A stretch of DNA of 64,000 nucleotides from Escherichia phage ALITA: sequence record PP359570, one strand, 5' to 3'. The notes beneath the pieces are model-generated. The model had not been told where the DNA came from and searched no databases. It was given only the letters and a program-made list of their open reading frames with translations. Position numbers and translations under genes: made by a program. Shown here piece after piece: positions 6,133 to 56,845 of the stretch (its first letter is position 1; each line of letters starts with the position of its first letter).

Positions 6133-6152
6133 AGTTTTCTCCTCTATTTAAT

Positions 6153-6623
6153 TTAGTCAGATTCCCAAATGTTGTCTTTCTTAACCCACATTCGTTGATT
6201 ATCTGAACCTCTATAACGTTTCGTTGTTGGTTGATTCATATCATACTTACCATCTATCACTATGTCAACCAGTTTTTTAATTTTCTCTGGAATTTCTTCA
6301 AAAAGATATCCTGTATATAAGACAATATCTTTTTTGTTTCCAAAACAATCTCTTACCTTCTCAAGAACATACTCTACAGTGTCAATGTTCTCTTTGTCAA
6401 GAGGTTCACCACCTAAAACTGTTAATCCTTTAATGAAAGGTCGAGATAAATCTTCCAAGATAAGATCTAATGTTTCAGTAGTGAACTCTTGTCCGTAGTT
6501 ATACGACCAGGCTTTCTGGTTAAAGCAGCCACGGCAACCGTGGCTACAACCGCTCACCCACAAAGAGCATCTTACACCATCACCGTTGAGCATGTCAACA
6601 GGTTCATATCCGGCGTAATTCAA
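6153..6623 (-). CDS. nrdG: anaerobic ribonucleotide reductase activating protein (radical SAM)
   Basis: 156 aa, Cys cluster CSLWVSGCSHGCRGC, immediately downstream of and overlapping nrdD. Confidence 0.8.
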   Translation of the reverse strand: MNYAGYEPVDMLNGDGVRCSLWVSGCSHGCRGCFNQKAWSYNYGQEFTTETLDLILEDLSRPFIKGLTVLGGEPLDKENIDTVEYVLEKVRDCFGNKKDIVLYTGYLFEEIPEKIKKLVDIVIDGKYDMNQPTTKRYRGSDNQRMWVKKDNIWESD

Positions 6624-10754: not shown

Positions 10755-13529
10755 TTAGTTTACCAGTTTATTTATATCTGGTAAAAGATTTATTTCACCT
10801 AAGAAATCACCTTCACCTTCCTCTAGCCAACTCTCATATGCTTGTGCATGATTATAGTTACCATCAAAAGAATCTGCAACAAATTTTTCTACAGTTTTTC
10901 GAGATGTGCCAGCACCAAATACACCAAGTTTAATACCATTGATCGGTAAAGTGGTGCTTGTGGGTACTTTCTCTGTTGCAACACGGTTGATATCTATAAT
11001 CTCCTGTACGGTTGTGTTCCATTGTAAGCATTTAACACAACGGGTATGCGCTACATACAGTAGGTTTCGCTCTGCCTCTTCCAGTCCTACCCATTCACCA
11101 GTCTTTTTATCATAGTTGGAAGGAAAATCATTAGCAACAATAACCTGATCCCACTCCAAACCTTTAGACTTGTGTGCTGTAGTCAGTGTGACTTTTGCTG
11201 TAGGAGAATTTCTATGCGTTCTAAGTGTATGTGCTATAGTGTTTGCCTTACCAGAAACTACGATGTTTAACAAGCGTTTAGCATCTGGATCAGCCTCTGC
11301 ACACTCAACAAATTCATCCCAGTCTGCGTAAGGTAATACAGTTTCATGTTTTACTTTCTCAATATCTCCTCTCCGAAGAGCATTAACACTATCTACCATA
11401 GAGATAAAATCCCTGGTATCTACGTTAATAATAATTTCTTCCCCATCTGCAATACGATCCATTGCCTCCATAAGCAAGGTTAAATTCTTGCGAAAGATGA
11501 TAGTGTAAGGTTTTGTATAGTCTACAACATCTGATTTGTAGCTACCTACTACAGTATCAAAGCCTTTACCAACCAAAGGATGACGCAAAGGTTCTTTATC
11601 GCTTAAAATCATATTGGCAATGTTTGCCACTTTGGGGCCAAAACGGAAGCAAGCAGTTAATGGAAGTTCTGCCCCATACTTAGCTGTTTCAATCATCATA
11701 TTAGAGCTACCTCTAAATTGATAAATGCAGTTGTGGCTAAGAATTTCATTGCCAAAGAAGTTAGCAGTATCCTCTACTTCAATATCATAATAGATACCCT
11801 CACTATCTACAATGTCCACAATCTCTTCTGCCGTTACAGTATCACCATCTTTTACCAACACAGACATGCCTTTAAACAAACCCGCTGCCGGAATTAAGTT
11901 ATATTTGGCACTGTTCACAGAGGACATGCATTCTTTTAAAGATGCAAACGGAACTATTTCAAGGATCTTTTGTGCAAAACTCAATGCTTCACGATAAGAA
12001 TTGAAATATTTACGTACACGGTAACGACCTTCCAATTTAGCAGCACTTACGCTTACACCTGCTTTAATCAGTGAAGAATAGATCGGCATTTCACTTTCTG
12101 TCCACTCAAAACTAACTTGTGTTCCTTTACAACCTTGTGCTCGCAAAGTCACTGTTAGCATTTTTCTTTCATCTACTGCACAATTGATGCTGTGCCAGTG
12201 TGGATAAGCAAAATGATAATCTTTATCCTCTAAAAGTTTAAAACCATTTTGTCCGAATTGTTCAAAGATGTTATTGATCCTTTCTTGATTAATGCCGCGT
12301 GAACTTGCTTCAAATACACAAGTAGGAATGCCATATTGTAAACTGTAAGCCATTTCTTTTTCCATAGCAGCTTCACGGTTTTCAACAATATCCAACACCC
12401 ATAATTTCTGTGCTTTTTCAGAACGTGTACGTTGCCCCAGTTTAGAAAAACCTTCTTTATCATCGAATTTGTTAGTGATCCCTACTCGGAAACCTAAATC
12501 TTTCCTCCACATTAGGTATACCACCATCTGATCATCTTTCAGAACATAGGATGAAGCCCAAATACGATGGTTATGTGTCATATCTAAAGTTTTACCTGTG
12601 GCAGTAATAATATTCCTACCTTTTGTACGTGTAGATAAAGTCTTATTTGTTACTTTTCTAAATGTAACTTTACCATTAGAATAAGACTCTACCTTATCAC
12701 CGATTTGCAGGTCTTTCATTGTAACCTGACCATTCTCGGTATTAAGTACCGTGTTTTCCGACACACATTGGAATTCATCGCCCACTACCACAATTTGTTT
12801 TGCAGATTTAGCATTTCGCAGAATAGACAAGAATGCAGGGTTAACATCCTGGAATTCATCACCAAAAATAATATCATAACCAAGATCAGCACCAGACAAT
12901 TCAAACAATTTTACATAGGTGTCATGCGTCATTAAAGTATCTGTGTTAGGATCGATGCGCTCTCGCCACAATTGTTTTGCATACTTAACTACTTCTGTAA
13001 TTAGTTTGTGTTCGTTAATACCTTTTCTTTTAATATCTGCAAGATGTACACTAGGAAAATGTTTACGGCTGATAAAAGGATCATCCGAAAATTCAAACTT
13101 ACCTACGGTTTGCTTGATCATTAAACCGATCATAGCACGAGTTAAAAGTGTTTTACCTCGTTTATCAATAAGATTATTAATCTTAAATTTCTTTGCTATC
13201 TCACTACCTGTACCTGCAACGTTAACATACTGTCCTTCTGGTCGTGACAGTTTTGCACGTAAACGATGATCCAGGAATTGATAGCAAATAGAATGCAATG
13301 TACGGCATTCTACATTTAGTGGCATCTTACGTCGTGCTTCTTCTGCCATGCTTTTATTGAAAGCTAAGTAAAGAATGCGATCTTCTGTACTGTTAGCCAG
13401 CAAATAAAGTGTTGACGTTTTGCCTGATCCAGATTTAGCTTGGATAGTTAAAAAGCGATGGTCTGGAAAAGCCTCCTTAATAGCTGTTTGCTCTTCTGTT
13501 GGAGTGAAGCTCAACTCTTTCTTAGCCAT
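10755..13529 (-). CDS. UvrD/PcrA-like SF1 DNA helicase, interrupted by an in-frame intein
   Basis: Walker A AKSGSGKTST, motif II GDEFQD; motif III split as VVVGDEFQ / CIYQFRGSS by a 346-aa insertion; start set at MAKKE with GAGAGG RBS. Confidence 0.8.
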   Translation of the reverse strand: MAKKELSFTPTEEQTAIKEAFPDHRFLTIQAKSGSGKTSTLYLLANSTEDRILYLAFNKSMAEEARRKMPLNVECRTLHSICYQFLDHRLRAKLSRPEGQYVNVAGTGSEIAKKFKINNLIDKRGKTLLTRAMIGLMIKQTVGKFEFSDDPFISRKHFPSVHLADIKRKGINEHKLITEVVKYAKQLWRERIDPNTDTLMTHDTYVKLFELSGADLGYDIIFGDEFQDVNPAFLSILRNAKSAKQIVVVGDEFQCVSENTVLNTENGQVTMKDLQIGDKVESYSNGKVTFRKVTNKTLSTRTKGRNIITATGKTLDMTHNHRIWASSYVLKDDQMVVYLMWRKDLGFRVGITNKFDDKEGFSKLGQRTRSEKAQKLWVLDIVENREAAMEKEMAYSLQYGIPTCVFEASSRGINQERINNIFEQFGQNGFKLLEDKDYHFAYPHWHSINCAVDERKMLTVTLRAQGCKGTQVSFEWTESEMPIYSSLIKAGVSVSAAKLEGRYRVRKYFNSYREALSFAQKILEIVPFASLKECMSSVNSAKYNLIPAAGLFKGMSVLVKDGDTVTAEEIVDIVDSEGIYYDIEVEDTANFFGNEILSHNCIYQFRGSSNMMIETAKYGAELPLTACFRFGPKVANIANMILSDKEPLRHPLVGKGFDTVVGSYKSDVVDYTKPYTIIFRKNLTLLMEAMDRIADGEEIIINVDTRDFISMVDSVNALRRGDIEKVKHETVLPYADWDEFVECAEADPDAKRLLNIVVSGKANTIAHTLRTHRNSPTAKVTLTTAHKSKGLEWDQVIVANDFPSNYDKKTGEWVGLEEAERNLLYVAHTRCVKCLQWNTTVQEIIDINRVATEKVPTSTTLPINGIKLGVFGAGTSRKTVEKFVADSFDGNYNHAQAYESWLEEGEGDFLGEINLLPDINKLVN
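11730..12767 (-). mobile_element. intein (346 aa) within helicase motif III
   Basis: Begins with Cys (CVSENTVL...), ends ...SHN followed by Cys; block-B-like TxxH (THNH); excision would restore contiguous GDEFQ-CIYQFRGS; size suggests an embedded homing-endonuclease domain. Confidence 0.7.
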
Positions 13530-13530
13530 T

Positions 13531-14007
13531 TCAACCTCTCTTAATTTGTTTAACAAGCATAGGAACAAAGTCTCGTTTTAAAATTTGTTCAATAATATGA
13601 TCAGGTAGCTGTTGGAAATTATAATTAAAAGCTACTGTCTCACCTTTAGGCGTTTCTACCCGCACATATAACATGTTACGAAGTTTATCAACTTGTGCTG
13701 TATATTCTAAACCATGTAATTGATGTAATGCAAACATCAAATCATCAGTTTCAGTTTGGAATCTATCCCTTCCCTGCATCAAGGACAAGGAAAAAGGTAG
13801 ATTTTCCCTAAGAGCCACCTTCTTAGGAACTAGTGAAGGAAAATACTCACCAATAACTTCCTGTGTAAGCTGGATACACTCTTTTTCAAGTTGGTTTTGT
13901 TCCTTAAGTTCACAAACACTTTTTTGTAAAGTGTTAACCTCTTTTTGCAAAGCTGCTAGTTGAGCACTTAACTTTCTTTTTTGATTACGACCAAAACGTT
14001 TAGACAT
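13531..14007 (-). CDS. hypothetical protein
   Basis: 158-aa ORF, coiled-coil-like N-terminus. Confidence 0.5.
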   Translation of the reverse strand: MSKRFGRNQKRKLSAQLAALQKEVNTLQKSVCELKEQNQLEKECIQLTQEVIGEYFPSLVPKKVALRENLPFSLSLMQGRDRFQTETDDLMFALHQLHGLEYTAQVDKLRNMLYVRVETPKGETVAFNYNFQQLPDHIIEQILKRDFVPMLVKQIKRG

Positions 14008-18596: not shown

Positions 18597-18776
18597 TTAT
18601 TTTTGTAGATCATTTCTTCTTTCCTTTTTGATTACAGCCCCATCACTCCCTTGCCAAACTTCCGATCTGAATTCCATCTCAAACCACTCACCACCGCAAA
18701 AACGGCTATGTTCAACACGTCTATCTTCCTTCATTGCTTCTTTAGCTTCGATAGAAGTTAGTTCGATGTTTTGCAT
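18597..18776 (-). CDS. hypothetical small protein
   Basis: Start at MQNIEL with AAAGGAG RBS (the longer track ORF has an implausible N-terminus). Confidence 0.4.
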   Translation of the reverse strand: MQNIELTSIEAKEAMKEDRRVEHSRFCGGEWFEMEFRSEVWQGSDGAVIKKERRNDLQK

Positions 18777-18894
18777 TTGTTTTTCTCCTTTCATTTGGTA
18801 TGCGCTAATCTTAACAAAATAAAAATGTATGTCAATACTTGATTTGAAATTAGTTTCTGGTACTCTGTGTGTATCGTAACAAAAGAGGTTAGAT
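18777..18894. promoter_or_regulatory. divergent intergenic control region at the strand switch
   Basis: AT-rich 118-bp gap between leftward and rightward gene blocks; promoter boxes not resolved. Confidence 0.35.
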
Positions 18895-19185
18895 ATGAAC
18901 ATCACACTAGCAACTAAGAATATTACAGAAACTTTTGATGGTTTTGGCATTATTATTGCTGTTCATGGGCATAACGAAAAATGGTTAGCCTCTTTTGAAG
19001 AGGACAAAGAACGCAATGTACGTTTGAATGCACCAATCAAAGTTTTACACCAGGTAGGTGAGAATAAGAAACAATGGAGATCATACAAAGAGTGGAACAT
19101 TACGAACGAGTTAATACACAAACTTGACAAAGTGATAAACATGTTCGACAATGCACCAAGCAGTGCAAAACGTGTTTTACTATAA
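18895..19185 (+). CDS. hypothetical protein
   Basis: 96-aa ORF. Confidence 0.5.
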   Translation: MNITLATKNITETFDGFGIIIAVHGHNEKWLASFEEDKERNVRLNAPIKVLHQVGENKKQWRSYKEWNITNELIHKLDKVINMFDNAPSSAKRVLL

Positions 19186-19196
19186 AGGAGAGTGAT

Positions 19197-19550
19197 ATGA
19201 AAATTGTACACGATGAAATTCAATTTGAAGACAGTGATCTTCTTGATCTGGATGTGACACTAAGTAAACTGATCTACAACGCACTTTCTGCATATCGTGC
19301 AAAAGTGATAGCCACAAACAATGTTAAAATTCCTAGTGGGTTACTTCGTCGGATGTACCCACACGCTAAAGGTGACTATCTACCTTATATGGAAGAACGA
19401 GCAGCAGAACACTGGTTAGAAATTCTTGAAAAAATGGAGTCCTCTTTTAAAGATTCAACTCCACCGGAAGAAGTTAATGAAAAACAACGGCAAGAGCGTT
19501 TAGAAGGTCGTATTTTGTTTGCTAAGTATTTCCATAATTTGTGGAGCTAA
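19197..19550 (+). CDS. hypothetical protein
   Basis: 117-aa ORF. Confidence 0.5.
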   Translation: MKIVHDEIQFEDSDLLDLDVTLSKLIYNALSAYRAKVIATNNVKIPSGLLRRMYPHAKGDYLPYMEERAAEHWLEILEKMESSFKDSTPPEEVNEKQRQERLEGRILFAKYFHNLWS

Positions 19551-19626
19551 ACATATCTGGTAAAATCACTTATATGTTCTTAGTATACTTGTGTAAAGAA
19601 GTTATCGGTCTAATTAAGGGGAAGAT

Positions 19627-19879: not shown

Positions 19880-20218
19880 ATGTTTAGTAAAGAAATGAGA
19901 GAAGTAATTGCCACTTTGGTAGTTGATCATGGTGTTGAAGTTGAGCGTCACGTTTGGAACGATGAACCTCCTTTCTTCGATTTGGCATCACGAGCTAAAA
20001 GTCATATGCACCTGCTGGAAGACGGTAATGAGTTTGTTCTCCGTATGCGTTATGATCGAGAGTTTCGAATTCCGCTTGACACTGAACCAGATGGTGTAGT
20101 AATGTGGTTGGCAGAACATTTCGCATACGATGCACTACATGGAAGAAGTTTTGGTAATGAGCGTTGGGATGCCATTTGTCGTAAGCATAATATTGAACCA
20201 GAGTACGGGAGTATGTAA
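19880..20218 (+). CDS. hypothetical protein
   Basis: 112-aa ORF. Confidence 0.5.
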   Translation: MFSKEMREVIATLVVDHGVEVERHVWNDEPPFFDLASRAKSHMHLLEDGNEFVLRMRYDREFRIPLDTEPDGVVMWLAEHFAYDALHGRSFGNERWDAICRKHNIEPEYGSM

Positions 20219-22267: not shown

Positions 22268-22296
22268 TAAAAACCCGCTTCGGCGGGTTTTCTTGT
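22268..22296 (+). terminator. rho-independent terminator (AAACCCGC-TTCG-GCGGGTTT plus T-run)
   Basis: Perfect hairpin followed by TTTCTTGTAT; same sequence recurs near 47227 and, inverted, near 51595. Confidence 0.7.
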
Positions 22297-22328
22297 ATTG
22301 ATACCAGATTTAATAAGAGGAGTAATAG

Positions 22329-24287: not shown

Positions 24288-24504
24288 TATTTTGAAAATT
24301 TTTATTTTTATAAAAAGGGGTGTGGGTTTCATGTACGGAAATCCACCCTCTGAATAATATATCCAGAGTAAGTAGTATTCTGTACTCTGTTAATAAAGTA
24401 TTTAATTTGTTTGTTGGATTATGGTGGCTGATCTTTAAAAGGCATACTATCTCTTAACTACTACTTATAACAAAACAGTAAAATCCTTTTTATAAAAGTA
24501 CAAA

Positions 24505-24715
24505 ATTATTTAAAGTTTTTACAGATTTTCGGGTACAAATTTTGAAAATGAAAAGTTCAAGTTTGGTCAAAATTATTTAAAGTTTTTGTACGTATTTCTG
24601 TCCAGATTTTGAAAATGAAAACTTCAATTTTTTAAAAATTCCCCAGTTTATTTAAAGTTTTTTTGCCTTTTTCCGTAGAAAAATCAAAAATGAAAAGTTC
24701 AATTTCGTGTTTTTA
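24505..24715. repeat. three ~70-bp imperfect direct repeats (iteron-like)
   Basis: Each unit contains TATTTAAAGTTTTT ... TTGAAAATGAAAA(G/C)TTCAA; non-coding, AT-rich. Confidence 0.6.
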
Positions 24716-24723
24716 TAGGTGTG

Positions 24724-24840
24724 TTAATGAGAATCATTTTCGTTTGTAAATGAGAATCATTATCATTTAACTATGTAAGTGATAATCATTCTCAGTAAGA
24801 GAATGAGAATCATTAGCAAATGAGAATTTTTCTCATTTAC
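24724..24840. promoter_or_regulatory. cluster of five Fur-box-like palindromic sites (AATGAGAATCATT family)
   Basis: AATGAGAATCATT x3, GTGATAATCATTCTC, and perfect palindrome AAATGAGAA-TTT-TTCTCATTT; core matches part of the GATAATGATAATCATTATC consensus. Confidence 0.45.
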
Positions 24841-25737: not shown

Positions 25738-25793
25738 TTGACAACGTTTTTTAATCTGATAAGATGTATCACATAGGGCGGCAATAGTGCCGC
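25738..25793 (+). promoter_or_regulatory. promoter plus 5' stem-loop cassette (PeSL-like) #1
   Basis: TTGACA, 16-nt spacer, TAAGAT, then CACATAGG-GCGGCA-ATAG-TGCCGC hairpin about 25 nt before the ATG. Confidence 0.6.
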
Positions 25794-25817
25794 TCATAAC
25801 AGAAGAGAGAAATAATC

Positions 25818-26090
25818 ATGGCATCATATAGCGCATCAATGATTGTAAAGGGTATCACTGGTAAACCTATGCGCGGTGGCGGATCTTTCGCTAACATCAA
25901 TATTGATGGACGTTTATCCCTGGACGCAGCGATCACAGTGGCACGGGAAACATTTAAAAAAGAATGTAATTTCAATAAACAAGATTATCTCGGTTTTGCT
26001 ATTGAAAAAACCGCGCGCTTTGTGGATTATAAAAGCCCGAAAATGATCGACACTACACTAAAAGCGCAAGATGTAGCGTTTTTGCTTTAA
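25818..26090 (+). CDS. hypothetical protein
   Basis: 90-aa ORF behind cassette #1. Confidence 0.5.
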   Translation: MASYSASMIVKGITGKPMRGGGSFANINIDGRLSLDAAITVARETFKKECNFNKQDYLGFAIEKTARFVDYKSPKMIDTTLKAQDVAFLL

Positions 26091-26093
26091 GAC

Positions 26094-26154
26094 TTGACAC
26101 TGAAAAATAATTTGATAATATATACCACATAAGGCGGGGAAATGGTTTCCCGCC
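26094..26154 (+). promoter_or_regulatory. PeSL-like cassette #2
   Basis: TTGACA-16-TAATAT then GGCGGGGAAATGGTTTCCCGCC hairpin. Confidence 0.6.
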
Positions 26155-26176
26155 AAATCAAAGAAAGGGTAATGCA

Positions 26177-26539
26177 ATGAGCAAGCAAATCAATACTATC
26201 ATGTTTAATCTGGTATCTTTCCGCGATGACGTGAAAAACCTTTCGCGTGATGCAGTGGATGCACGGATCGAAAGCTATCGCACACAGATCGCAACGTTAC
26301 CGCTGAAACGTGATCAACATGCCGCTAATATGATGCTTGATGCTATGATTAAAAAGATGATTCAATGTGATCTTACCCTGGCTTATGAATATGCTGGCGA
26401 TCTCTTTGTAACATATAGCAAGCCCGTTCCAGGTATGAGCACCACGGAAGAATTGCATGCCTTAAATCTGCGACAAGATGCATGGGATAACATGCGCCGT
26501 GTTATGGTATGGGTAGAAAGCGGTAAAATTTACGAATAA
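26177..26539 (+). CDS. hypothetical protein
   Basis: 120-aa ORF. Confidence 0.5.
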   Translation: MSKQINTIMFNLVSFRDDVKNLSRDAVDARIESYRTQIATLPLKRDQHAANMMLDAMIKKMIQCDLTLAYEYAGDLFVTYSKPVPGMSTTEELHALNLRQDAWDNMRRVMVWVESGKIYE

Positions 26540-26545
26540 AAACGG

Positions 26546-26598
26546 TTGACATTGCACTAAAACCTGATAAGCTATCTTAAAGCGGGAATAGTTCCCGC
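26546..26598 (+). promoter_or_regulatory. PeSL-like cassette #3
   Basis: TTGACA-16-TAAGCT then GCGGGAA-TAG-TTCCCGC hairpin. Confidence 0.55.
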
Positions 26599-26617
26599 TT
26601 ACATAGGATAAAACTTT

Positions 26618-26764
26618 ATGAAACAATATGTAATGAGTATTCACACCAAAAACGGCGCTACTGTTACGACTCCGGCACGGTTTGCACTTGTAAACCGTTG
26701 CAAGAGACTAAAACGAGAGCTAAAAAACAACCGTGCAACGGGCTTTAAACGCTGGGGAGGATAA
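26618..26764 (+). CDS. hypothetical small basic protein (48 aa)
   Basis: Unlisted ORF MKQYVMSIHTK... directly behind cassette #3. Confidence 0.4.
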   Translation: MKQYVMSIHTKNGATVTTPARFALVNRCKRLKRELKNNRATGFKRWGG

Positions 26765-26766
26765 TC

Positions 26767-27027
26767 TTGTTTTTTCTAAAAGTTTTTGATAATGTGATCG
26801 CTTTTGAACATGCTACAACGTTCGACCTGGCGAGATACGCTATCAGGTTTAAAGATAATGTTTATCCCCGTGCTGGCGGCGGTTACACTATTTTTAATCA
26901 TCGCAACGCGCAACTAACTGATATAACTAATCCAGATCCTGGAGTGTATCGGATAGGCTGGCTACCGTCAAAAGATGCGGCAAGCATGTTTAAGGTATGT
27001 AAACTACTAACAGAAGAGGCGAACTAA
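26767..27027 (+). CDS. hypothetical protein (TTG start)
   Basis: Track ORF; GGAGG of the upstream gene end serves as RBS (translational coupling). Confidence 0.4.
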   Translation: MFFLKVFDNVIAFEHATTFDLARYAIRFKDNVYPRAGGGYTIFNHRNAQLTDITNPDPGVYRIGWLPSKDAASMFKVCKLLTEEAN

Positions 27028-27028
27028 C

Positions 27029-27583
27029 ATGGGGCGTGAATATGTGATCCAGTCCTGGGTAAAGCATGATGCTAATGATCCGCGCATAATACCAGATGAC
27101 ATGATCGATCACATGGTAGGGTATAGCGGGGAGCAGATAGGAAATCGAGCGGCAAAGAGCAACGGCAACACCAGGACGCGATCCGTTCGCCCTGGATGGC
27201 TGGCAAATGGTAACGCTGACATTGCAAGCGCCGCAGATCCAAGCGATGACGCTAAAAATAATCCCTTATACAGTATTGATCCGGCTTTTAAGGTGTTGGA
27301 AGAGTATCCCGCTAAATTAGCCGCACTAGATAAAGCATACGAAGAAAAACGGGTGGCATGGACTGTATACAACACCGCTAAAATGGTGCTAGATGCAAAA
27401 TTGATTAAAGCCCAGGAGAAGATCAATAAACTTGTTACCATAGCGCAAGAGGAAGACCAGGACGACCAGGAGGAAGAGGAAGAAATCATGCCTAACCTGG
27501 AAGAGGAAGAGATCCAGCCATACACGCCGACAGAAGAGGAAAAAATACAAGCCTTAAAAAATTATAAAAATTGTATTGTGTAA
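27029..27583 (+). CDS. hypothetical protein with acidic C-terminal tail
   Basis: 184 aa; DQDDQEEEEEIMPNLEEEE tail. Confidence 0.5.
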   Translation: MGREYVIQSWVKHDANDPRIIPDDMIDHMVGYSGEQIGNRAAKSNGNTRTRSVRPGWLANGNADIASAADPSDDAKNNPLYSIDPAFKVLEEYPAKLAALDKAYEEKRVAWTVYNTAKMVLDAKLIKAQEKINKLVTIAQEEDQDDQEEEEEIMPNLEEEEIQPYTPTEEEKIQALKNYKNCIV

Positions 27584-27586
27584 GGC

Positions 27587-27641
27587 TTGACATATGCAAA
27601 CAAGCCCCGTAATATGTACCACATAGAGCGGGGCAACCCCC
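27587..27641 (+). promoter_or_regulatory. PeSL-like cassette (degenerate hairpin)
   Basis: TTGACA-17-TAATAT then CACATAGAGCGGGGCAACCCCC (short GGGG/CCCC stem). Confidence 0.45.
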
Positions 27642-27663
27642 TCAAAGGTGAAATAAAAATCAC

Positions 27664-27691
27664 TTGACAACTGAAATCAGTAAGCTATAAT
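27664..27691 (+). promoter_or_regulatory. consensus sigma70-type promoter (TTGACA-16-TATAAT)
   Basis: Perfect -35 and -10 hexamers about 40 nt upstream of the 27729 ATG; tandem with the preceding cassette. Confidence 0.55.
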
Positions 27692-27728
27692 GCTTATATA
27701 AATTAAAGCGTTACTAAGGAATAAAATC

Positions 27729-35960: not shown

Positions 35961-36517
35961 ATTTCATACAGTAATTATTCCATATGGTAATCATTTCATA
36001 CAATAATTATAACAAGAAATATAATTCGCAAGCGTATCATTAGCAGCCTATGCCGGACACATAGGCGGCTAATAATAACGCAACTACACACCCCACATAA
36101 TAACCATCAACGATGGTTATTATTTGTGTTTATGTAGCTTGCAACAATTGCAAGCGCAACAATATACATGGTATATTGTATTCCCTTACATTGTTGCGGT
36201 GCGTTATTATTAGCTAATGTTTAGAACATTGGCTATAATATAAGCTGCATATAATAAACTATGCAATAATAAACATGGTGAATAATGACACCGATGATCA
36301 TAATGCGCCACCCTCCAGGGGGCGCTATGTAAACACAAAGAAATCTTTCTTGTCAAGAAAATATTGCCACTATTGCGCAAAATTATTTTTATCTGAATAG
36401 ATGATTTTTCATACTATTGCCCCTATAACATACCTCATTTGTTGAGCCTACTTTCTTAAAAGCGCAATAAATCAGAATTATCTTGATTTTTAGGGCGTTT
36501 TATAGTACAGAAAGTAT

Positions 36518-36536
36518 GCAAATGATAATCATTATC
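36518..36536. promoter_or_regulatory. near-consensus Fur-box-like 19-mer
   Basis: GCAAATGATAATCATTATC matches the consensus GATAATGATAATCATTATC at 17 of 19 positions (16 consecutive). Confidence 0.5.
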
Positions 36537-36702
36537 AGCTATCTTCCACGGGTAGCACTATTTCACGCCAGATCATTTCATTTGGCAAGGTGTATATAGA
36601 TGTTTAGACTTGCCAAGCCATTGATTTACTTAGAATTTATCTGTTTTGTTGTGAGTAATACCTTTCTTACTCAGAAAATAATCAAAAGTCTTATAAGTCA
36701 TT

Positions 36703-36738
36703 GAATGATAATACAAATGATAATTATTCTCATTGATA
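36703..36738. promoter_or_regulatory. tandem degenerate Fur-box-like sites
   Basis: GAATGATAATACAAATGATAATTATTCTCATTGATA. Confidence 0.35.
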
Positions 36739-37093
36739 TTTGAGGGGGACGGTCGGCAGAAATCGGGGGGCGCTGAAAATCGCGTTAAGCACCTCTCGCA
36801 AGCGAGCAGTATTTTGCGGCAAGTTATTGATATTATTGACTTTACGCTTATGAAAAGGGGGTGTGTCGAAATAAATCGGGTATACCGGAAAATTTTTGTG
36901 GCATAGATATTTATTTGTCTATATTATGTACAAAGGGGTGTATTAAAAATAATAGGTATATATAGAATAATTGATAGGGAAATCCTATACTAATCCCTCC
37001 ATTAATGATGTTTCTATGTTGCTGTTATTGTAATAGATGAAAAGACGCTGTATGATGTGTGGCATGAAACGTAAACTTATAAAGGAGTCTGAT

Positions 37094-47226: not shown

Positions 47227-47254
47227 ATAAACCCGCTTCGGCGGGTTTTCTTGT
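47227..47254 (+). terminator. rho-independent terminator (AAACCCGC-TTCG-GCGGGTTT plus T-run)
   Basis: Identical hairpin to the one at 22268. Confidence 0.7.
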
Positions 47255-47297
47255 ATGTGTGTTTTTATTTGTCTTAGCATAAACAATAGGAGGTATT

Positions 47298-50138: not shown

Positions 50139-51128
50139 CTATTCCTCCATACATTTAAGAATATGTGCAATGACAGGTATAGTCCAACCGTTACCTAACA
50201 TCTTATATGCTTGTGTGTTACTACTCACTTTAAAGTAGTCATCTGGCACACCTTGCAAACGGCAACACTCTTTAACGGTTAACTTTCTATAATGTACGCC
50301 TTCACTCAATTTTTCAAAAGCATCTAAATATCTTCCAGGTGGAATGTAAGCTAATAGTACGTCTTTCGGCACAGTCGTGAGGCAACGAGTTTTTTCACTG
50401 TCCTGAACTTCCAAACAATGTACCAAACGATCAGTTTTAGATGTACTACGTTTGCCATTTTCATTAATTCTACGCCCATATATTGCTGCTGGATAAAAAA
50501 CCAGTTGTCTGCGACTCTTTTCAAAATACTGTTCTATATTACCACCTTTGGCATAATTTGCATCTATGCAATAAGCCTTATCTCTGTCTACAATACTATC
50601 ATCTTCAATGATATCTTGCAACACTTCATTGGTAATATCCCAGGGTTTTATTTCCCAGTTGCACCAGTATAAACGTTGTCTATTCTGTGCCGTGAAATCT
50701 GCGGAGTTAATGAATACGGGATCAACACCTAAGTAACTTGTGATCACGTTTTCCCACTCCACTTTCATCTTAACGTTTTCAAGCATGAACTTAACATTAG
50801 GGTTAAACTTTTTAATATGTTCAAGAATCTCAACATATTCGAAGAATAGCTTAGATCGCGGATCTTGAAAGTTCAAACCCTTACCAGAAGAAGAGAAGCC
50901 TTGACACGGACTACCACCTAACAAAAGATCAATTTCTCCCCACGGGATATCCCATTCTCTCCATTTTGTAACATCACCTAACTGAATAATATCTGGAAAA
51001 TTTGCTTGGCTTTCAGCTATGGCGAATTTGTCTAATTCTGAAGCATAATATGTATCTACGTCAATACCTGCACTTTTTAGCGCAAGCATTCCTCCTGACA
51101 TGCCATCAAAAAGACTTAAAACTTTCAT
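50139..51128 (-). CDS. DNA (cytosine-5)-methyltransferase
   Basis: Motif I LSLFDGMSGG, motif IV GGSPCQGFS, motif VI ENV. Confidence 0.85.
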   Translation of the reverse strand: MKVLSLFDGMSGGMLALKSAGIDVDTYYASELDKFAIAESQANFPDIIQLGDVTKWREWDIPWGEIDLLLGGSPCQGFSSSGKGLNFQDPRSKLFFEYVEILEHIKKFNPNVKFMLENVKMKVEWENVITSYLGVDPVFINSADFTAQNRQRLYWCNWEIKPWDITNEVLQDIIEDDSIVDRDKAYCIDANYAKGGNIEQYFEKSRRQLVFYPAAIYGRRINENGKRSTSKTDRLVHCLEVQDSEKTRCLTTVPKDVLLAYIPPGRYLDAFEKLSEGVHYRKLTVKECCRLQGVPDDYFKVSSNTQAYKMLGNGWTIPVIAHILKCMEE

Positions 51129-51130
51129 TA

Positions 51131-51541
51131 TTACTTCTTCTCCTTAACACTAGCTGGTAATTCTGCCTTGAGGCAGAAGTTTAAACGGTAAGCCTCATTC
51201 TCATTTAAAAGTACAGATTCACACGATAACCAGAACAAGAGATCCTCAATACCAGGGCTGTTAAGCCAACAGTGCAGAAGAGAATGTTGTTCTATATCAA
51301 TGTAATTTAGTAACAAGGCTTGTAAGGCGTAACTAGTTCCTGTCGTTTTTGCTTTTTCAAGGATGATATTGTGTTTACTAACAACTTTCTTCCTAAGACC
51401 AAACCATTTATTAACAACAACAGTCTCTTCTTGTAGTTGTTTTCTTATTTTCTCACATTCTTTAACTACAATCTGCATCTTATCCACTGCTGATTGAAGT
51501 TGTTCTTTTGTTGGGTTTACAAAATAATCACTATAATACAT
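51131..51541 (-). CDS. hypothetical protein
   Basis: 136-aa ORF. Confidence 0.5.
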   Translation of the reverse strand: MYYSDYFVNPTKEQLQSAVDKMQIVVKECEKIRKQLQEETVVVNKWFGLRKKVVSKHNIILEKAKTTGTSYALQALLLNYIDIEQHSLLHCWLNSPGIEDLLFWLSCESVLLNENEAYRLNFCLKAELPASVKEKK

Positions 51542-51594
51542 GCTAAACTCCTCTTCTGTTTTTCTGTAGTTTATTCGAAAAAACTGGTGTTGTC

Positions 51595-51622
51595 AACAAA
51601 AAACCCGCCGAAGCGGGTTTAT
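51595..51622 (-). terminator. rho-independent terminator (AAACCCGC-TTCG-GCGGGTTT plus T7 on minus strand)
   Basis: Same hairpin family as 22268 and 47227, inverted. Confidence 0.65.
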
Positions 51623-51623
51623 A

Positions 51624-51881
51624 TTATTCTACAGGAACTTCTTCACCAAGAGAAACTTCTAAACGGAATGCTTTACTTTCAATACATTCACTACCTTTTA
51701 AGAAATCGAATTGCACTATAGACTGACTTAATAGAATAGATAGAATCACATCGCAATCTTCACTAGGGGCTAGATGTTTGTATTCTTCCTTCAAGGTAAC
51801 ATCATAAAAACATAAGTCCCCTACTCCTAGTTCATCCCATCCTTCCCACGCATCTACAAAGTTAAACTCTAAACCTTTCAT
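51624..51881 (-). CDS. hypothetical protein
   Basis: 85-aa ORF. Confidence 0.45.
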   Translation of the reverse strand: MKGLEFNFVDAWEGWDELGVGDLCFYDVTLKEEYKHLAPSEDCDVILSILLSQSIVQFDFLKGSECIESKAFRLEVSLGEEVPVE

Positions 51882-52402
51882 ACAATCTCCTCGTAATTGT
51901 TATTGTGTTTTACTGTCTCAACATACAATAAAGATTCCATCTGTAATACATTACCAGAAATAATAAACCCATAAGCCATTTCAGATGTGTCTATATCATA
52001 TGCCCCGTCTTCCGGTTTAGCAAAGTGTAAAACTATTTCATCTGGGTTTTCTTCATCCCATAGTTTAGAAATTTTCCGAACCAGAATGTTAGCTAAAATA
52101 GTTGACATTCGGGATAAAGCTGTATCCTCATATCTTTTAAAACCTAGCCAATAGAGGTTAAGAATTTCTACTTCTTCTTGTGTTAAGTTTTTGTCTAAAG
52201 TAATCAGATCTGTAGAGCACGGCGTTTTTGTTGAACCTACTGTTACAAAACCTGGAGTGTTATGAAAAACAATCTTAACTTTATCACGTATAAAGTTTAA
52301 ACCTTGTGCCTCAACTATATATTGTATTGTAGGTACAATATCGTTTGTTACATCAATAAAACTATCTTTAATGACGCTTATATTATTTCTGGACAATACC
52401 AT
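51878..52402 (-). CDS. hypothetical protein
   Basis: 174-aa ORF. Confidence 0.5.
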   Translation of the reverse strand: MVLSRNNISVIKDSFIDVTNDIVPTIQYIVEAQGLNFIRDKVKIVFHNTPGFVTVGSTKTPCSTDLITLDKNLTQEEVEILNLYWLGFKRYEDTALSRMSTILANILVRKISKLWDEENPDEIVLHFAKPEDGAYDIDTSEMAYGFIISGNVLQMESLLYVETVKHNNNYEEIV

Positions 52403-52961
52403 TCTCCTCTAAGATAGGCTTAATAAATTCGAAAATTTGTTTTTTACTTTTACCTCGAATATTAAAACAAGGAACATTAAACTTTTTAGCCAACATCCAA
52501 GCTGTTCTTGTACCACCTAAAGGATCTCCATTTTTATCTGTATTTGCACAAGCCAAAAGAAAACAAGATGGTTTTGGATTCTCAAGATCTCTTCCAAGAA
52601 CTTGGTGGATATTTCTTTGATGTAATTTTTTAGCACCTTGAGATAATCTGTCCCAAGCTGGATGCAATTCTTTTGCATATTGCAAGGTTAAAGCATAGTT
52701 TACACTATCTGGTCTGTCAAGAACAATAACCTCTCCCTCTATTTCATTACCTTTAAACGAGAGCCAAGGGATGTATATTTCTTTCTTTGTATTGTTCCCA
52801 CTATCATATACCCCGCATTCAAATGCGGAATCTGCACCTTCTGCTTTACCAGATCGCAAAATGAACCATGTAGATAGCCATTTTGCAACAGATACCATAG
52901 TATCCCATTCTTCGTCTGTAATATCTCTGCTACCAACACCTGTGTAGAATAAATCGCTCAT
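52383..52961 (-). CDS. Rossmann-like SLOG/DprA-type domain protein (tentative)
   Basis: Start at MSDLFY (GGAGAAAACC RBS); YTGVGSRD...SGKAEGADSA resembles the DprA/SLOG nucleotide-binding core. Confidence 0.35.
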   Translation of the reverse strand: MSDLFYTGVGSRDITDEEWDTMVSVAKWLSTWFILRSGKAEGADSAFECGVYDSGNNTKKEIYIPWLSFKGNEIEGEVIVLDRPDSVNYALTLQYAKELHPAWDRLSQGAKKLHQRNIHQVLGRDLENPKPSCFLLACANTDKNGDPLGGTRTAWMLAKKFNVPCFNIRGKSKKQIFEFIKPILEENGIVQK

Positions 52962-52971
52962 GGTTTTCTCC

Positions 52972-53292
52972 TTAACAAGTAATATTGGGAGTAACAATTG
53001 GATTAACAATTGGAGTGATAGGGTACGTAAACCAAGGGCTTCCAATTTCCCAAGGATTATAAGGTCTACGAGGATCAAATGGAGGAGTTACTTCAGGCTT
53101 TTTCCAAATCTCCGCTAGTTGTTTCTTCCATTTATCCCTTGCTGTCTCATTATCTTCATCCAACTGTTCATCATTATCTTTTATTTCTGGTTTTGGAAAT
53201 AAAAGCTCTTTGACTAACTCAACATCTTCCGTCTCAATAGTAGTTTCTTTCGTAAGTTCTCCTACTGTTTCTTTAATTGTGATTTTATACAT
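52972..53292 (-). CDS. hypothetical protein
   Basis: 106-aa ORF, Pro-rich C-terminus. Confidence 0.45.
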   Translation of the reverse strand: MYKITIKETVGELTKETTIETEDVELVKELLFPKPEIKDNDEQLDEDNETARDKWKKQLAEIWKKPEVTPPFDPRRPYNPWEIGSPWFTYPITPIVNPIVTPNITC

Positions 53293-54038
53293 TAGTCCTC
53301 CTCTAAAGTAGAATAAAATTGTAACGTATTTGAATCATCAAAATATGCAAAGGTTAAATTACCATTGAAGCAAGATCCTGTGTCCATATATACCCTATTA
53401 CTGCTAATCATAGGTTTAGGAACATAAGAATGCCCGTGAAATACATAATCTACTCCTGAAACCCTAGGAAGAAGAATCCCTTCAAGTGCGCAATCTATCA
53501 TATCACGATCCCACATTAAAGATTCTGTGAATCGAGAAACTTGCTCTTTATTCATATTCAAACAAAATGGCAAAACTTCTGTCACTGGTAAATGTTCCAA
53601 AACTGAAGGATACCCACCGTGAATAAAGCCTAGTTTCATATTACGATAATTGACAACAAGTACAACAGGTAAATCTTCTAGCATCAAAGCAAGAGCAGTT
53701 GCACCCTCTTCTCCACACTCGTCTAGAACTGTATGGCCTCCGTTCTGAAACCAACATTCGTAATATCGTCTATCACCTTCTAGCAACCCTTTAATCATCA
53801 TATCTTCATGGTTCCCACGAATACCATAACGATTTAGCTTTCTGGTGAATTCAACAACACAACGAAAATTCTGCTTGCCGCGATCTGTAAGATCTCCTAA
53901 AGATACAACAACATCTTGATCTCGGATACCTAAAGTATTAACACCTTTCTGGTACAAATCAAAGCAACCATGTAAATCACCAATAATAAACAGGTCTTGA
54001 TCATCTTTTACACTAATTTCTTGATATACTAGCATCAA
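53292..54038 (-). CDS. Ser/Thr protein phosphatase (calcineurin-like metallophosphoesterase)
   Basis: GDLHGC, GDLTDRG, GNHE motifs in canonical order. Confidence 0.8.
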   Translation of the reverse strand: MMLVYQEISVKDDQDLFIIGDLHGCFDLYQKGVNTLGIRDQDVVVSLGDLTDRGKQNFRCVVEFTRKLNRYGIRGNHEDMMIKGLLEGDRRYYECWFQNGGHTVLDECGEEGATALALMLEDLPVVLVVNYRNMKLGFIHGGYPSVLEHLPVTEVLPFCLNMNKEQVSRFTESLMWDRDMIDCALEGILLPRVSGVDYVFHGHSYVPKPMISSNRVYMDTGSCFNGNLTFAYFDDSNTLQFYSTLEED

Positions 54039-54361
54039 CTCTCCTCAAAATCCATAAGTATAAAGATATTAACTTTACCTTCTATATTATGTTCTACAAC
54101 AAGATCTGCAAATTCTTTGTAGGCTTTTTCTTCTATTTGTTCAATGTGAGACGCTACATCTTTGTATATAGCGTCACCATCTACTTTAACAAGGAGGAAT
54201 AGAGATCTTACTTCAATCTCTTTATTTTTACGGGGTAGAAAATCGACGGCTTCTTGTATACGCCAGCCGAGATACCCTGGAGTCCTTTGAATATCCTCCA
54301 AATGACTTTCTAAGATTTCCCTTCCTTTGTCTATTAAAGCCTGTTCTGTCGTTATTTTCAT
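54035..54361 (-). CDS. hypothetical protein
   Basis: 108-aa ORF. Confidence 0.45.
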   Translation of the reverse strand: MKITTEQALIDKGREILESHLEDIQRTPGYLGWRIQEAVDFLPRKNKEIEVRSLFLLVKVDGDAIYKDVASHIEQIEEKAYKEFADLVVEHNIEGKVNIFILMDFEES

Positions 54362-54371
54362 CCCCTTCTCC

Positions 54372-54944
54372 TTAATGTGTTAATGAAACTGCGTAACTAA
54401 ACACAGGTTCAGATATTACATCGGCTACAGTAATAAAAACGTCTTCGTCTTGAGTTGTTTCTACACGACATACAGTTACACCATTCACCACGAATTCAAC
54501 GCAATGTGGAATATCTTCACAAACGAAGGTAGTGTAAGTAACACCCAAAGCATCATACAAAGATTTAACAGTGTTTGCAAGTGCCGCAGTTTCTTCTTTT
54601 TCTGAGACAATGAATGCTGTAACAACAAGATTGTTTGCATAGTTTAGACTGTCCTCTATAGCCAATGATTTACAAGGTAGTAATGCAAAATATTTACCTG
54701 GTTTAATCAGACCTGCTTCCCATTGATTCAAAATTGCTTGGGATGGTTTAGTAATATAAAACAGATTTTCACTTGGGTTATCAATATTACTTCTGGCGAT
54801 ACAACGTGAAGGATTATTAATATCAAACACATGATCAAAATCTACACAAACTGGTAAACTGAAAGGTGTGAATTTTTTACCTAATAATCCTACTGCTGAC
54901 AATATGTTTGCTGTGCTTATCTTCCCGTTAAAAGCTAAACGCAT
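54372..54944 (-). CDS. hypothetical protein
   Basis: 190-aa ORF. Confidence 0.5.
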   Translation of the reverse strand: MRLAFNGKISTANILSAVGLLGKKFTPFSLPVCVDFDHVFDINNPSRCIARSNIDNPSENLFYITKPSQAILNQWEAGLIKPGKYFALLPCKSLAIEDSLNYANNLVVTAFIVSEKEETAALANTVKSLYDALGVTYTTFVCEDIPHCVEFVVNGVTVCRVETTQDEDVFITVADVISEPVFSYAVSLTH

Positions 54945-54955
54945 ATTTAACTCCT

Positions 54956-55159
54956 TTAACTAGCAACCGTAACTTCCGAACTTTCTTCTTTCGTACTGTC
55001 TACGATATGCCTGGTGGCAATATACGAGACTTGCCAGTTACCATCTGGTGTAGTCTCAATAAGTACCCTATCTACTTCGAGAAAATGCAAAAATTCAACC
55101 ATCGCTCGCTTCGATAGGAATTGTTTTTTAACAGTCTCCTCAAAAGATTGAACTGCCAT
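54956..55159 (-). CDS. hypothetical protein
   Basis: 67-aa ORF. Confidence 0.4.
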   Translation of the reverse strand: MAVQSFEETVKKQFLSKRAMVEFLHFLEVDRVLIETTPDGNWQVSYIATRHIVDSTKEESSEVTVAS

Positions 55160-55168
55160 GTTTCCTCC

Positions 55169-55831
55169 TTATTTAATATTCAATTTTGCACAAAGACGTT
55201 GTACCGCTTTGGCATCGAACAAACTCCCACGAATAGTTCTCTTTCCTGATTCATTCAGATGTTTTGCAATCGTCATATATGGCGTTTTACAAGCTCTGTA
55301 TGCAACTAAAGAATCTTTTAAAGAAAGCGCAAACTCTTTTGAGCGTTTTGCTTCTTCCGTTTTCGTATAATCTGTTCTTTTGTATTTAGGGTTTGCTGCA
55401 CCAAGAAGCGTTCCCTTCGCTTTTGCTACTTTAAGGCTCTTCTTAACACGATCAGATATTGCACGAGCCTCTTCTTCTGCCAGAACTGCTAAAATATTTA
55501 TTATCATATTTTCAGCGGAGGGCATAGTTGCTATTCGTACATTAATCATCTCTAACAAGGTTGCAACAGAAGCTGTGTTACGTCCAAGACGGTCAACCTT
55601 AGCAACAACAAGTGTAGCACCTGTTTCTTTGCAAAGATTAACAGCTTTTACAAGCTCTCTACGTTGCTTCCAATCGCCTTTACCCGAATAAAACTCTGCA
55701 AAGCTACCTACAATAGTATAATTTTCTTGTGAATCCAGGAAGCGTTGGATATCTGCTTCCTGTGATTCTATACCATACTGGTTGCCTTGTTGTTTCTTCT
55801 TAGAAAGTCGATGATACAGTACAAACTTCAT
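55169..55831 (-). CDS. serine recombinase (resolvase/invertase family)
   Basis: N-terminal YHRLSKKKQ (catalytic Ser context), VAKVDRLGRN resolvase motif, C-terminal HTH-like segment. Confidence 0.7.
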   Translation of the reverse strand: MKFVLYHRLSKKKQQGNQYGIESQEADIQRFLDSQENYTIVGSFAEFYSGKGDWKQRRELVKAVNLCKETGATLVVAKVDRLGRNTASVATLLEMINVRIATMPSAENMIINILAVLAEEEARAISDRVKKSLKVAKAKGTLLGAANPKYKRTDYTKTEEAKRSKEFALSLKDSLVAYRACKTPYMTIAKHLNESGKRTIRGSLFDAKAVQRLCAKLNIK

Positions 55832-55888
55832 AATACCCTCCTGTTCTGTTACAGGAAGTATGCACTACCTTAACGTTAAAGTCAACAG

Positions 55889-56104
55889 TTAAGTAGTGGT
55901 AATATCATCTTCTTGAATATCAGGATCAACTTCTGCAAAGATAGCTTCTACAGGAATTTCTTCACCTGCTATTCTAGAAAGAAGCACTGAACCAATAGCT
56001 TTTGCGTGTTCTTCGGATTCCGCATAAACATTAGTCCCTGTGTCTTTTTTCTTAGTTTCGTTAAAATATACCAGATAGTAATTGTATGCCATTATTCTTC
56101 CCAA
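55889..56104 (-). CDS. hypothetical protein
   Basis: 71-aa ORF. Confidence 0.4.
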   Translation of the reverse strand: MGRIMAYNYYLVYFNETKKKDTGTNVYAESEEHAKAIGSVLLSRIAGEEIPVEAIFAEVDPDIQEDDITTT

Positions 56105-56343
56105 TCGTTGTTACGAGCATTTTCAAGAACCTTGACAACTTCTGCATACTCTACAGCTAAACCAGCACACACTTCAGCTTGTTTTGCAATTGCTTGTTTA
56201 AAGAACATAGCGATTGCAACACTCTGTGTTGTGTGAATGTTATCTGCTTTAGTTGATACGTGAAGATCAAAATCTTCTTCATCAAAGGGGAGTTCCATAG
56301 TAACAATAAATTTCTCGGTCATAAAAATGCTCCTCTTAAACAA
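56092..56343 (-). CDS. hypothetical protein
   Basis: 83-aa ORF. Confidence 0.4.
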   Translation of the reverse strand: MFKRSIFMTEKFIVTMELPFDEEDFDLHVSTKADNIHTTQSVAIAMFFKQAIAKQAEVCAGLAVEYAEVVKVLENARNNDWEE

Positions 56344-56845
56344 AATAGAAAGGTTGAGTTAAACCCAGCCTGTTTTTTGGGTCGTAGACGTACCAAGCAT
56401 ATGCTGTCTTATCAGTACCACCTGCAACAAAAGATGGTCGTTCAGAAAGAACAATCAAATTTGTTGGTGGATTCTGTTTATGGAACTCCCTTCGTTTAAT
56501 AGACTCTAGGAACCCAAGACGCAACAAGTATATGCAAACGTCTGCTTCTTTTAAGCTCTTTTGCAAGAACTCAAGTGCAAGTTTGAATGGGGGATTTGTG
56601 ATTATAATATCCGGCTTAGTATGCCATTCGTGGTTAAAATAATCTTTCCCTTCTTCTAACTCACAATATTCTGATCCTTCTGGAAAATGTTGATAAATTG
56701 CAGCAGCAGCACCTTTACACGGTTCTGCAAAAATAAAACCTTCTTCTTTAAGGTTATTAAAATCTATTACACTAAATAATGCATTTATACATTTTTGTGG
56801 AGTAGGATAGTAATCAGTTGGTGGACGATCATACTTATTTGCCAC
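56336..56845 (-). CDS. small phage-type DNA N6-adenine methyltransferase (Dam-like)
   Basis: DYYPTP and IITNPPF (N/DPP[FY] catalytic motif); 169 aa. Confidence 0.6.
   Translation of the reverse strand: MANKYDRPPTDYYPTPQKCINALFSVIDFNNLKEEGFIFAEPCKGAAAAIYQHFPEGSEYCELEEGKDYFNHEWHTKPDIIITNPPFKLALEFLQKSLKEADVCIYLLRLGFLESIKRREFHKQNPPTNLIVLSERPSFVAGGTDKTAYAWYVYDPKNRLGLTQPFYFV

Follow-up and report, generated by a model that had tools for sequence, protein, structure and literature searches.

A constrained serine recombinase, a minimal gamma-class methyltransferase and a two-orientation promoter segment in the phi92-like virulent Escherichia phage ALITA

Escherichia phage ALITA (sequence record PP359570) is considered here through a window of 64,000 nucleotides, the whole stretch of DNA that was analysed, in which a 6.7-kb interval at 50139–56845 carries a serine recombinase gene flanked by methyltransferase and phosphatase genes. 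This interval almost certainly lies in the leftward early/middle operon block of a virulent, phi92-like myophage with short direct terminal repeats (DTRs), and has genes for a C5-methyltransferase, a Ser/Thr phosphatase of the lambda type, a mini gamma-class amino-methyltransferase without a recognition domain and a serine recombinase of 220 amino acids (aa). What the recombinase does is a matter for a more tentative reading, which we hold at less than even confidence: it may be an active, early and autoregulated enzyme of the resolvase/lox-like kind that uses a single site in each genome copy, probably the promoter dyad of its own gene, to recombine genome copies.

The stretch comes from a phi92-like virulent myophage of the genus Justusliebigvirus, subfamily Stephanstirmvirinae. 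The window is collinear with positions 54.5–119.8 kb of phage EmilieFrey (Bas61), and the flagged 6.7 kb is 98–99.4% identical to 55 GenBank Justusliebigvirus phages, with a single collinear match in 53 of the 55. The virulent character proposed in the preliminary description of this DNA agrees with that placement and with the BME3 paper, which does not report lysogeny genes as present. A 343-bp phi92-type terminal repeat lies on the plus strand at about 36445–36787 (phi92 nucleotide 1 corresponds to window position 36445, and DTR-R of phi92 is annotated at 148270–148612), so that the window includes the physical ends of the genome; in the literature, PhageTerm assigns a DTR of 342 bp to BME3 and one of 317 bp to FKP3. 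All open reading frames (ORFs) named previously are present on the minus strand at the positions first given, and the identities proposed for the C5 methyltransferase, recombinase, phosphatase and small methyltransferase were confirmed by the ORFs and by PF00145, PF00239, PF00149 and phrog_799. Annotations of the four genes in phi92 (gp043, gp053, gp049 and gp056) and EmilieFrey/Bas61 are identical to these. The flagged genes are thereby already known: GenBank has listed them since the phi92 genome of 2012, and they are equally named in many therapeutic-candidate phages.

The recombinase gene (55169–55831, minus strand; phi92 gp053, labelled ‘DNA invertase’ in GenBank) encodes a protein in which residues 4–141 match the PF00239 resolvase domain (8.4e-22; 78.3 bits against a cut-off of 23.3). 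With S10, R8, D67, R68, R71 and R125 of gamma-delta resolvase as the catalytic reference set, residues Y6, R8, S10, D80, R81, R84, E121 and R128 of gp053 are invariant or at least 90% conserved among 25 homologues with identities down to 25%. Mutation of the catalytic residues had been named beforehand as a reason to discount a recombination role; on alignment they are intact, and the enzyme is predicted to be catalytically competent. An AlphaFold (AF2) model with a predicted local distance difference test (pLDDT) score of 89 shows, besides the catalytic domain, a long E-helix and, at the C terminus (aa 160–216), a confidently modelled domain of four helices, for which no HTH_7-type Pfam match was obtained. 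Foldseek comparison of the model returned Bxb1 integrase at the top (1.7e-7), followed by Sin and PhiC31, and weak sequence matches in the PDB were to Sin (1e-5), Tn3 (2e-5), gamma-delta (7e-5) and Gin (8e-4). The best NCBIfam match is CcrB, and BLASTP against Bxb1 Int gave E=0.008. Taken together, the predicted fold is nearest to integrase and resolvase types (Bxb1, Sin, Tn3, gamma-delta) and not to Gin.

gp053 can be compared with several groups of characterised serine recombinases. It has a catalytic domain and catalytic residues in common with Tn3/gamma-delta resolvase and Sin, but differs in giving no HTH_7 match, in having a four-helix bundle as its C-terminal domain and in belonging to a virulent phage instead of a transposon or plasmid. 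Bxb1 gp35 is its top structural match, and the N-terminal plus recombinase domains (NTD+RD) of PhiC31 Int also match it. Its N-terminal ‘RLSKKKQQGNQYGIESQ’ insertion is typical of large serine recombinases, and its C-terminal motif ‘IAxxLNxxGxxTxxG...V.R’ resembles the start of the recombinase domain. Unlike these integrases, gp053 has only 220 aa, over which PF00239 was the sole match, with no PF07508 recombinase domain, zinc ribbon or coiled coil found, and it comes without attP/attB sites or lysogeny. Literature searches found no virulent phage with terminal repeats whose serine recombinase has been characterised.

The gene is widespread and strongly constrained. It was found in 161 phage records, with identities of 99–100% in all of the approximately 55 Justusliebigvirus members, 78% in Klebsiella phage FKP3, 57% in Phapecoctavirus, 51% in KP13-16, 49% in Shewanella phage 1/40 and 25–35% in Vibrio and Cellulophaga phages. 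Among bacteria, a pattern scan of one genome per species across 185,579 species returned only 11 relatives with 30–41% identity. The ratio of nonsynonymous to synonymous substitution rates (dN/dS) against FKP3 is 0.085 for the recombinase, compared to 0.063 for PhoH and 0.073 for the small methyltransferase, which shows strong purifying selection. Gene order is PhoH, HslV-like, (small methyltransferase), recombinase, (phosphatase) and DprA-like in FKP3, KP13-16 and 05F01 alike, and Shewanella phage 1/40 has a reduced form of the order, PhoH-HslV-recombinase-DprA. A truncated recombinase in 05F01, suggested by partial tblastn matches, was rejected; the gene is full length there. These comparisons show a phage-restricted, old and vertically inherited gene. 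Both the dN/dS of 0.085 and the synteny, which reaches as far as Shewanella phage 1/40, contradict the earlier suggestion of a mobile-element remnant. The gene nonetheless behaves as a self-contained cassette. In Phapecoctavirus ESCO13 the recombinase (5995–6666) lies in a rightward early block, not in the leftward PhoH-DprA block, and is flanked there by homologues of the 94.1 and 95.06 kb genes of EmilieFrey.

A sigma-70-type promoter stands directly upstream of the recombinase start in all six lineages examined, as TTGACA/T-N16-18 plus a -10 element. In the window, the 57-bp gap upstream of the gene (55832–55888, minus strand) is a candidate operator or recombinase site, and it contains a sigma-70-like promoter, TTGACT-N17-CATACT (55885–55857), together with the short dyads TTAACGTTAA and TCCTGT-N6-ACAGGA. 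Longer dyads overlap the recombinase promoter in three relatives and are significant in each: FKP3 has a perfect 10+5+10 dyad, VPMCC14 a perfect 11+23+11 dyad and Shewanella phage 1/40 an 11+10+11 dyad that contains one mismatch and has its centre at the -10 element. In a distant relative from bacteria, a perfect 19+2+19 palindrome precedes the gene at a distance of 57 bp. The 32-bp dyad of phage 1/40 occurs as a single copy in the complete 139-kb genome, which fits one site per genome and not an inverted pair. The placement of a dyad-bearing promoter region ahead of the recombinase in several relatives is like that of res ahead of tnpR in Tn3-type elements. No three-subsite, res-like array of the Tn3/gamma-delta/Sin kind was identified upstream of the gene; there is one dyad in each of FKP3, 1/40 and VPMCC14 and there are weak dyads in the window. 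A motif, GTAG..CAT..TTC, common to the recombinase promoter and an inversion junction described below was considered and set aside (3 occurrences compared to 0.7 expected, post hoc and not significant).

The reading that we prefer, still tentatively, combines these observations. The recombinase would be made early as an active enzyme from its own host-type promoter, and would bind the dyad overlapping that promoter and so regulate itself, as Tn3 resolvase does at res. With a single resolvase/lox-like site per genome copy, it would recombine sister or head-to-tail copies and interconvert unit circles and multimers during replication, and it would not flip a host-range segment. We infer both that the dyad is the recombinase site and that recombination takes place between genome copies. 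Points in favour are the intact catalytic residues, the dN/dS of 0.085, the wide, phage-restricted distribution, the conserved synteny, the gene’s own promoter, the dyads of the relatives, the single copy of the dyad in phage 1/40, the missing inverted pairs, the fold and the documented short DTRs. The preliminary description had proposed that the enzyme resolves replication intermediates; that proposal could still hold as site-specific multimer resolution, but not as branch cutting. P1 Cre-lox is a functional analogy only: it likewise has one site per genome and a recombinase that could cyclise or resolve genome copies, whereas Cre is a tyrosine recombinase, P1 is temperate and cyclisation is not seen here.

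Several points weigh against this reading. The promoter dyads of the window are short (6+6 and 5+5) and not above chance, and no second copy of the recombinase upstream region or its dyads was found in the genome. Neither a second site, nor a res-like array, nor a recombination product was seen, and some other protein might use the dyads as operators. DTR phages can form concatemers without a site-specific recombinase (T7-type replication), so the need for gp053 is not obvious. The relocation in ESCO13 indicates some cassette-like mobility of the promoter-plus-gene unit. Lastly, a segment that lies 36 kb from the recombinase exists in both orientations, which keeps an invertase role open.

An invertible host-range switch, as first proposed for this DNA, finds no support here. 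In the window and the complete EmilieFrey genome the longest inverted repeats (23–26 bp) are all terminators with a GC stem, tetraloop and T-run, oriented with transcription, and no inverted-repeat pair flanking any segment was found. About 50 genomes align with the tail-fibre/baseplate region collinearly and along a single strand, without inversion; an apparent split of J-01 in the tail-fibre region is a cassette replacement, not an inversion. No inversion was found at 25–50 kb of the window, where records that match in two places merely start at the terminal repeat, or in the neighbourhood of the flagged recombinase, which is collinear without a break in 53 of 55 genomes. The Hin/Gin/Cin/Pin invertases belong to the same superfamily as gp053, which has the GenBank label and the weak Gin match in their favour. 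They differ from it in that inverted crossover sites flanking a segment adjacent to the gene were not found here, that the tail-fibre genes are non-invertible and that the sole inverted segment is distant and without inverted repeats. As a separate observation, near-identical UUCG-loop terminator hairpins (AAACCCGCTTCGGCGGGTTT) occur at 22271–22298, 47229–47256 and 51601–51620, oriented with local transcription, and the two 28-nt copies are 100% identical.

Orientation heterogeneity, whose absence had also been named beforehand as a refuting result, does occur among isolates, in a 0.9-kb segment at 18611–19553 (no strand assigned) that contains a truncated N-dom ORF on the minus strand, a divergent promoter pair and, on the plus strand, homologues of gp216 (18895–19185) and gp214 (19197–19550). 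Its short ORF is homologous to the N-terminal part of phi92 gp217. The promoter pair lies where the leftward gene block gives way to the rightward one, and one of its members is the consensus early promoter TTGACA-N17-TAAGAT. Window positions 18675–19545 match phi92 132245–131089 in reverse and are inverted likewise relative to Nernie. With a junction-spanning query of 55 isolates, about 23 match end to end in the window orientation (including EmilieFrey, VEcB, PD06, ZYD and ESCO8), and about 32 break exactly at window position 18610 with a second place of matching (including phi92, Nernie, Paula, muut, BME3, Eryne and PaulScherrer). The outgroup phAPEC8, from a sister genus, has the window orientation and both window junction sequences, which implies that the phi92 form is derived and the window orientation ancestral. 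Besides orientation, a 57-nt deletion, gain or loss of a 350-nt gene and an in-frame fusion distinguish the two forms, whose junctions are non-reciprocal. The fusion gave phi92 gp217 (183 aa; phi92 132145–132696, Nernie 5170–5721), a chimera whose first approximately 70 residues derive from a phAPEC8_00241-like gene and whose remainder is a gene that is separate in the window (19880–20218); it was created by the inversion. The N-dom part is only about 75–80% identical between forms, a form-specific difference, and the remaining segment is 95–100% identical across orientations (99.7% for the gp216 homologue between the window and Nernie), which indicates gene flow between the forms. Overall, the comparison fits one old inversion, with deletions, that has been kept as a polymorphism, and not proven flipping; the heterogeneity thus looks like a single ancient event. 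Two other candidates were dropped at this segment: a hix/gix-like half-site at a junction, seen by eye only and without a dyad, and the intein described below as the cause of second matches in window 1–25 kb, since the intein is in place in phi92.

Could the recombinase nevertheless be a true invertase of this segment? Flipping would then swap the early promoters that head the leftward and rightward operons, and the phi92 orientation would also make the fused gp217. The inversion between window/EmilieFrey-type and phi92/Nernie-type genomes, the commonness of both forms with one identical breakpoint, the near-identity of the central part across orientations, the consensus early promoter on the segment and the GenBank label all speak for such a role. 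Set against them are the flanking inverted repeats, of which none above chance was found around the segment (the best is 17 nt at 82%), the non-reciprocal junctions with their deletion, gene gain or loss and fusion, the form-specific N-dom part and the presence of both window-form junctions in phAPEC8, which argues for a single derived event. The recombinase gene is also 36 kb away, whereas known invertases adjoin their segment, and it is conserved in phages without a known segment of this type. We regard an invertase of the segment as improbable. Still lower is the likelihood that gp053 is actively inverting the promoter cassette, with early promoters being switched, gp217 being made or broken and the isolate forms representing two states; if this were true, virulent phi92-like phages would carry a recombinase-driven switch.

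Action on non-self DNA, such as the host chromosome, prophages, plasmids or co-infecting phages, in early take-over or competition is another explanation, and we rate it as no less improbable than an invertase of the segment. It would suit the host-type early promoter that the gene has in every lineage examined, the failure to find a paired site in the phage genome and the location of the recombinase among accessory host-interaction genes, which in the window are Sir2, PhoH, HslV-like and phosphatase genes. Conservation at 35–78% across phages of Escherichia, Klebsiella, Shewanella and Vibrio tells against it, and the lineage-specific dyads next to the gene itself argue for a phage-borne site. 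The gene might also be a selfish promoter-plus-gene cassette, a moron or mobile-element relic with little role in the life cycle. That it carries its own promoter and that the ESCO13 copy is in the rightward early region, not the leftward block, are compatible with such a cassette. The low dN/dS, the 99–100% identity in all of the approximately 55 genus members, the synteny kept in a Shewanella phage at 49% identity and the terminal repeats or target duplications that were sought around the gene and not found make this explanation very unlikely.

The two methyltransferases call for a revised description. The C5 cytosine DNA methyltransferase (50139–51128, minus strand; 329 aa; phi92 gp043) matches PF00145 (1.5e-43, covering profile positions 1–322 of 324) and TIGR00675 (9e-41), and its translation contains GSPCQGFS and LENV (the PCQ and ENV motifs). 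Its best PDB sequence matches are DNMT3A/B, M.HaeIII and M.HhaI. The E. coli Dcm model NF007772 gave only 29.9 bits against a cut-off of 710, so the enzyme is no orthologue of E. coli Dcm (CCWGG); the earlier term ‘Dcm-type’ holds for the C5-methyltransferase superfamily and not for Dcm orthology. No match to the C5 enzyme was found in the Klebsiella FKP3 locus, and the enzyme is regarded as accessory because FKP3 lacks it.

The small methyltransferase (56336–56845, minus strand; 169 aa; phi92 gp056) is a gamma-class amino-methyltransferase catalytic domain without a target-recognition domain. It matches phrog_799 ‘DNA methyltransferase’ (7.8e-57) and gave no Pfam, NCBIfam (Dam models included) or PDB-sequence match. 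In an alignment of 37 members the motif order is X (YPTP)-I (EPCxG)-IV (TNPPF, invariant). The roughly 40 residues that separate motif I from motif IV include no recognition domain, NPPF is followed by about 85 further aa, and proteins throughout the family are 150–200 aa long. The gene is conserved at 80% identity. Foldseek comparison of its AF2 model (pLDDT 90) returned CamA (7e-5), M.TaqI (9e-5) and HsdM, and also the RNA m6A methyltransferases PH1948, TrmM and METTL5. It resembles M.TaqI, CamA and type I HsdM in fold and in the order X-I-IV with NPPF, but differs from them in lacking the whole target-recognition domain, in TM-scores of only 0.5–0.65 and in the lack of Pfam or PDB sequence matches. 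With the alpha-class E. coli and T4 Dam enzymes it shares the prediction of N6-adenine methylation, but not the motif order or fold class. The model and the motif order thus indicate a bare catalytic domain like those of TaqI, HsdM and CamA, and the designation ‘Dam-type’ should be abandoned; a separate Dam-like gene occurs elsewhere in the genome (EmilieFrey bas61_0037). Several family members have a Cys-rich insertion of 25–30 residues (CxxC...CxC, zinc-ribbon-like) after an RPxF motif, which may be a minimal nucleic-acid-binding add-on.

The proposal that orphan methylases in this block signify anti-restriction modification is plausible for cognate sites, but is weakened by the restriction sensitivity of related phages, by the missing recognition domain of the small enzyme and by the possibility that this enzyme acts on RNA. 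In the BASEL study phi92-like phages were ‘exceptionally susceptible’ to restriction-modification and seemed to be without effective protection (PMC8594841), which implies that the methylases give no broad protection, only motif-specific protection. The enzymes would modify phage DNA at particular motifs and so protect only against matching restriction enzymes. Site counts in EmilieFrey, as observed/expected ratios, are 1.03 for GATC and 0.97 for CCWGG, which are not depleted, and 0.40 for GGCC, 0.56 for CCGG and 0.56 for CATG, which are; GAATTC and GATATC are not depleted. Searches with PADLOC defence models returned only generic methyltransferase and helicase matches.

It is unlikely, though less so than any of the alternatives weighed above for the recombinase, that the 169-aa enzyme is an RNA (tRNA/rRNA) N6-adenine methyltransferase, or one targeted by a partner, and not a DNA anti-restriction enzyme. 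The absence of a recognition domain throughout its family, the fold matches to small NPPF RNA enzymes, the many tRNAs and tRNA-synthetase-like proteins encoded nearby and the high restriction sensitivity of phi92-like phages would all accord with RNA as the substrate. However, its top fold matches are the DNA enzymes, the PHROG and GenBank labels read DNA methyltransferase, and the N-terminal YPTP motif is typical of gamma-class DNA methyltransferases.

Other features of the block and window include the NinI/lambda-type Ser/Thr metallophosphatase (53292–54038, minus strand; phi92 gp049), which matches PF00149 (2.9e-13) and phrog_246 NinI-like phosphatase (7e-76). It was considered as a recombination directionality factor similar to Bxb1 gp47 and rejected (BLASTP E=1.3), with only the metallophosphoesterase superfamily in common. 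A DprA-like protein (52383–52961, minus strand; phi92 gp047; phrog_768, 1.4e-59) remains in the vicinity of the recombinase gene in FKP3, KP13-16 and Shewanella phage 1/40. Fur-box-like palindromes (consensus GATAATGATAATCATTATC) give seven matches at up to three mismatches compared to 0.03 expected, at 24723–24817, 35585–35608, 36518–36536 and 36700–36740; three tandem copies lie in the 24.2–25.7 kb non-coding region and one 17/19 match is inside the terminal repeat. The record of Shewanella phage 1/40 has similar AAATGATA..TATCATTT motifs at each end. Adjoining the Fur-box-like cluster in the large non-coding region, three tandem AT-rich units of 67–77 nt (24487–24705) may be an origin or regulatory array. 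Across 25738–34646 there is an early-promoter repeat family in which TTGACA-N17-TAAGAT precedes a GC-rich hairpin (GGGCGGGAAATGGTTTCCCGCC) and then a ribosome-binding site, with at least seven copies ahead of small plus-strand genes. A UvrD-like helicase ORF (937 aa, 10755–13568) contains an intein (insert at about 11703–12772) that is missing from EmilieFrey and present in 37 related records.

Recombinase genes of this type matter in practice, as they trigger ‘integration’ flags in phage-therapy safety screens. FKP3 was rated only 46% ‘virulent’ by one predictor, owing to a recombination-related gene. The comparisons made here show gp053 to be conserved within a strictly virulent lineage and not to be an integrase. 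Three results are worth keeping: the corrected class of the small methyltransferase, the evidence that a virulent lineage keeps an old and constrained recombinase, and the promoter cassette with its two orientations. The 169-aa methyltransferase family, with neither a recognition domain nor a Pfam model, is of interest as to its substrate. More broadly, these findings raise the question of why large virulent DTR phages keep a strongly constrained serine recombinase, for which the promoter dyads and the polymorphic inverted segment are the candidates.

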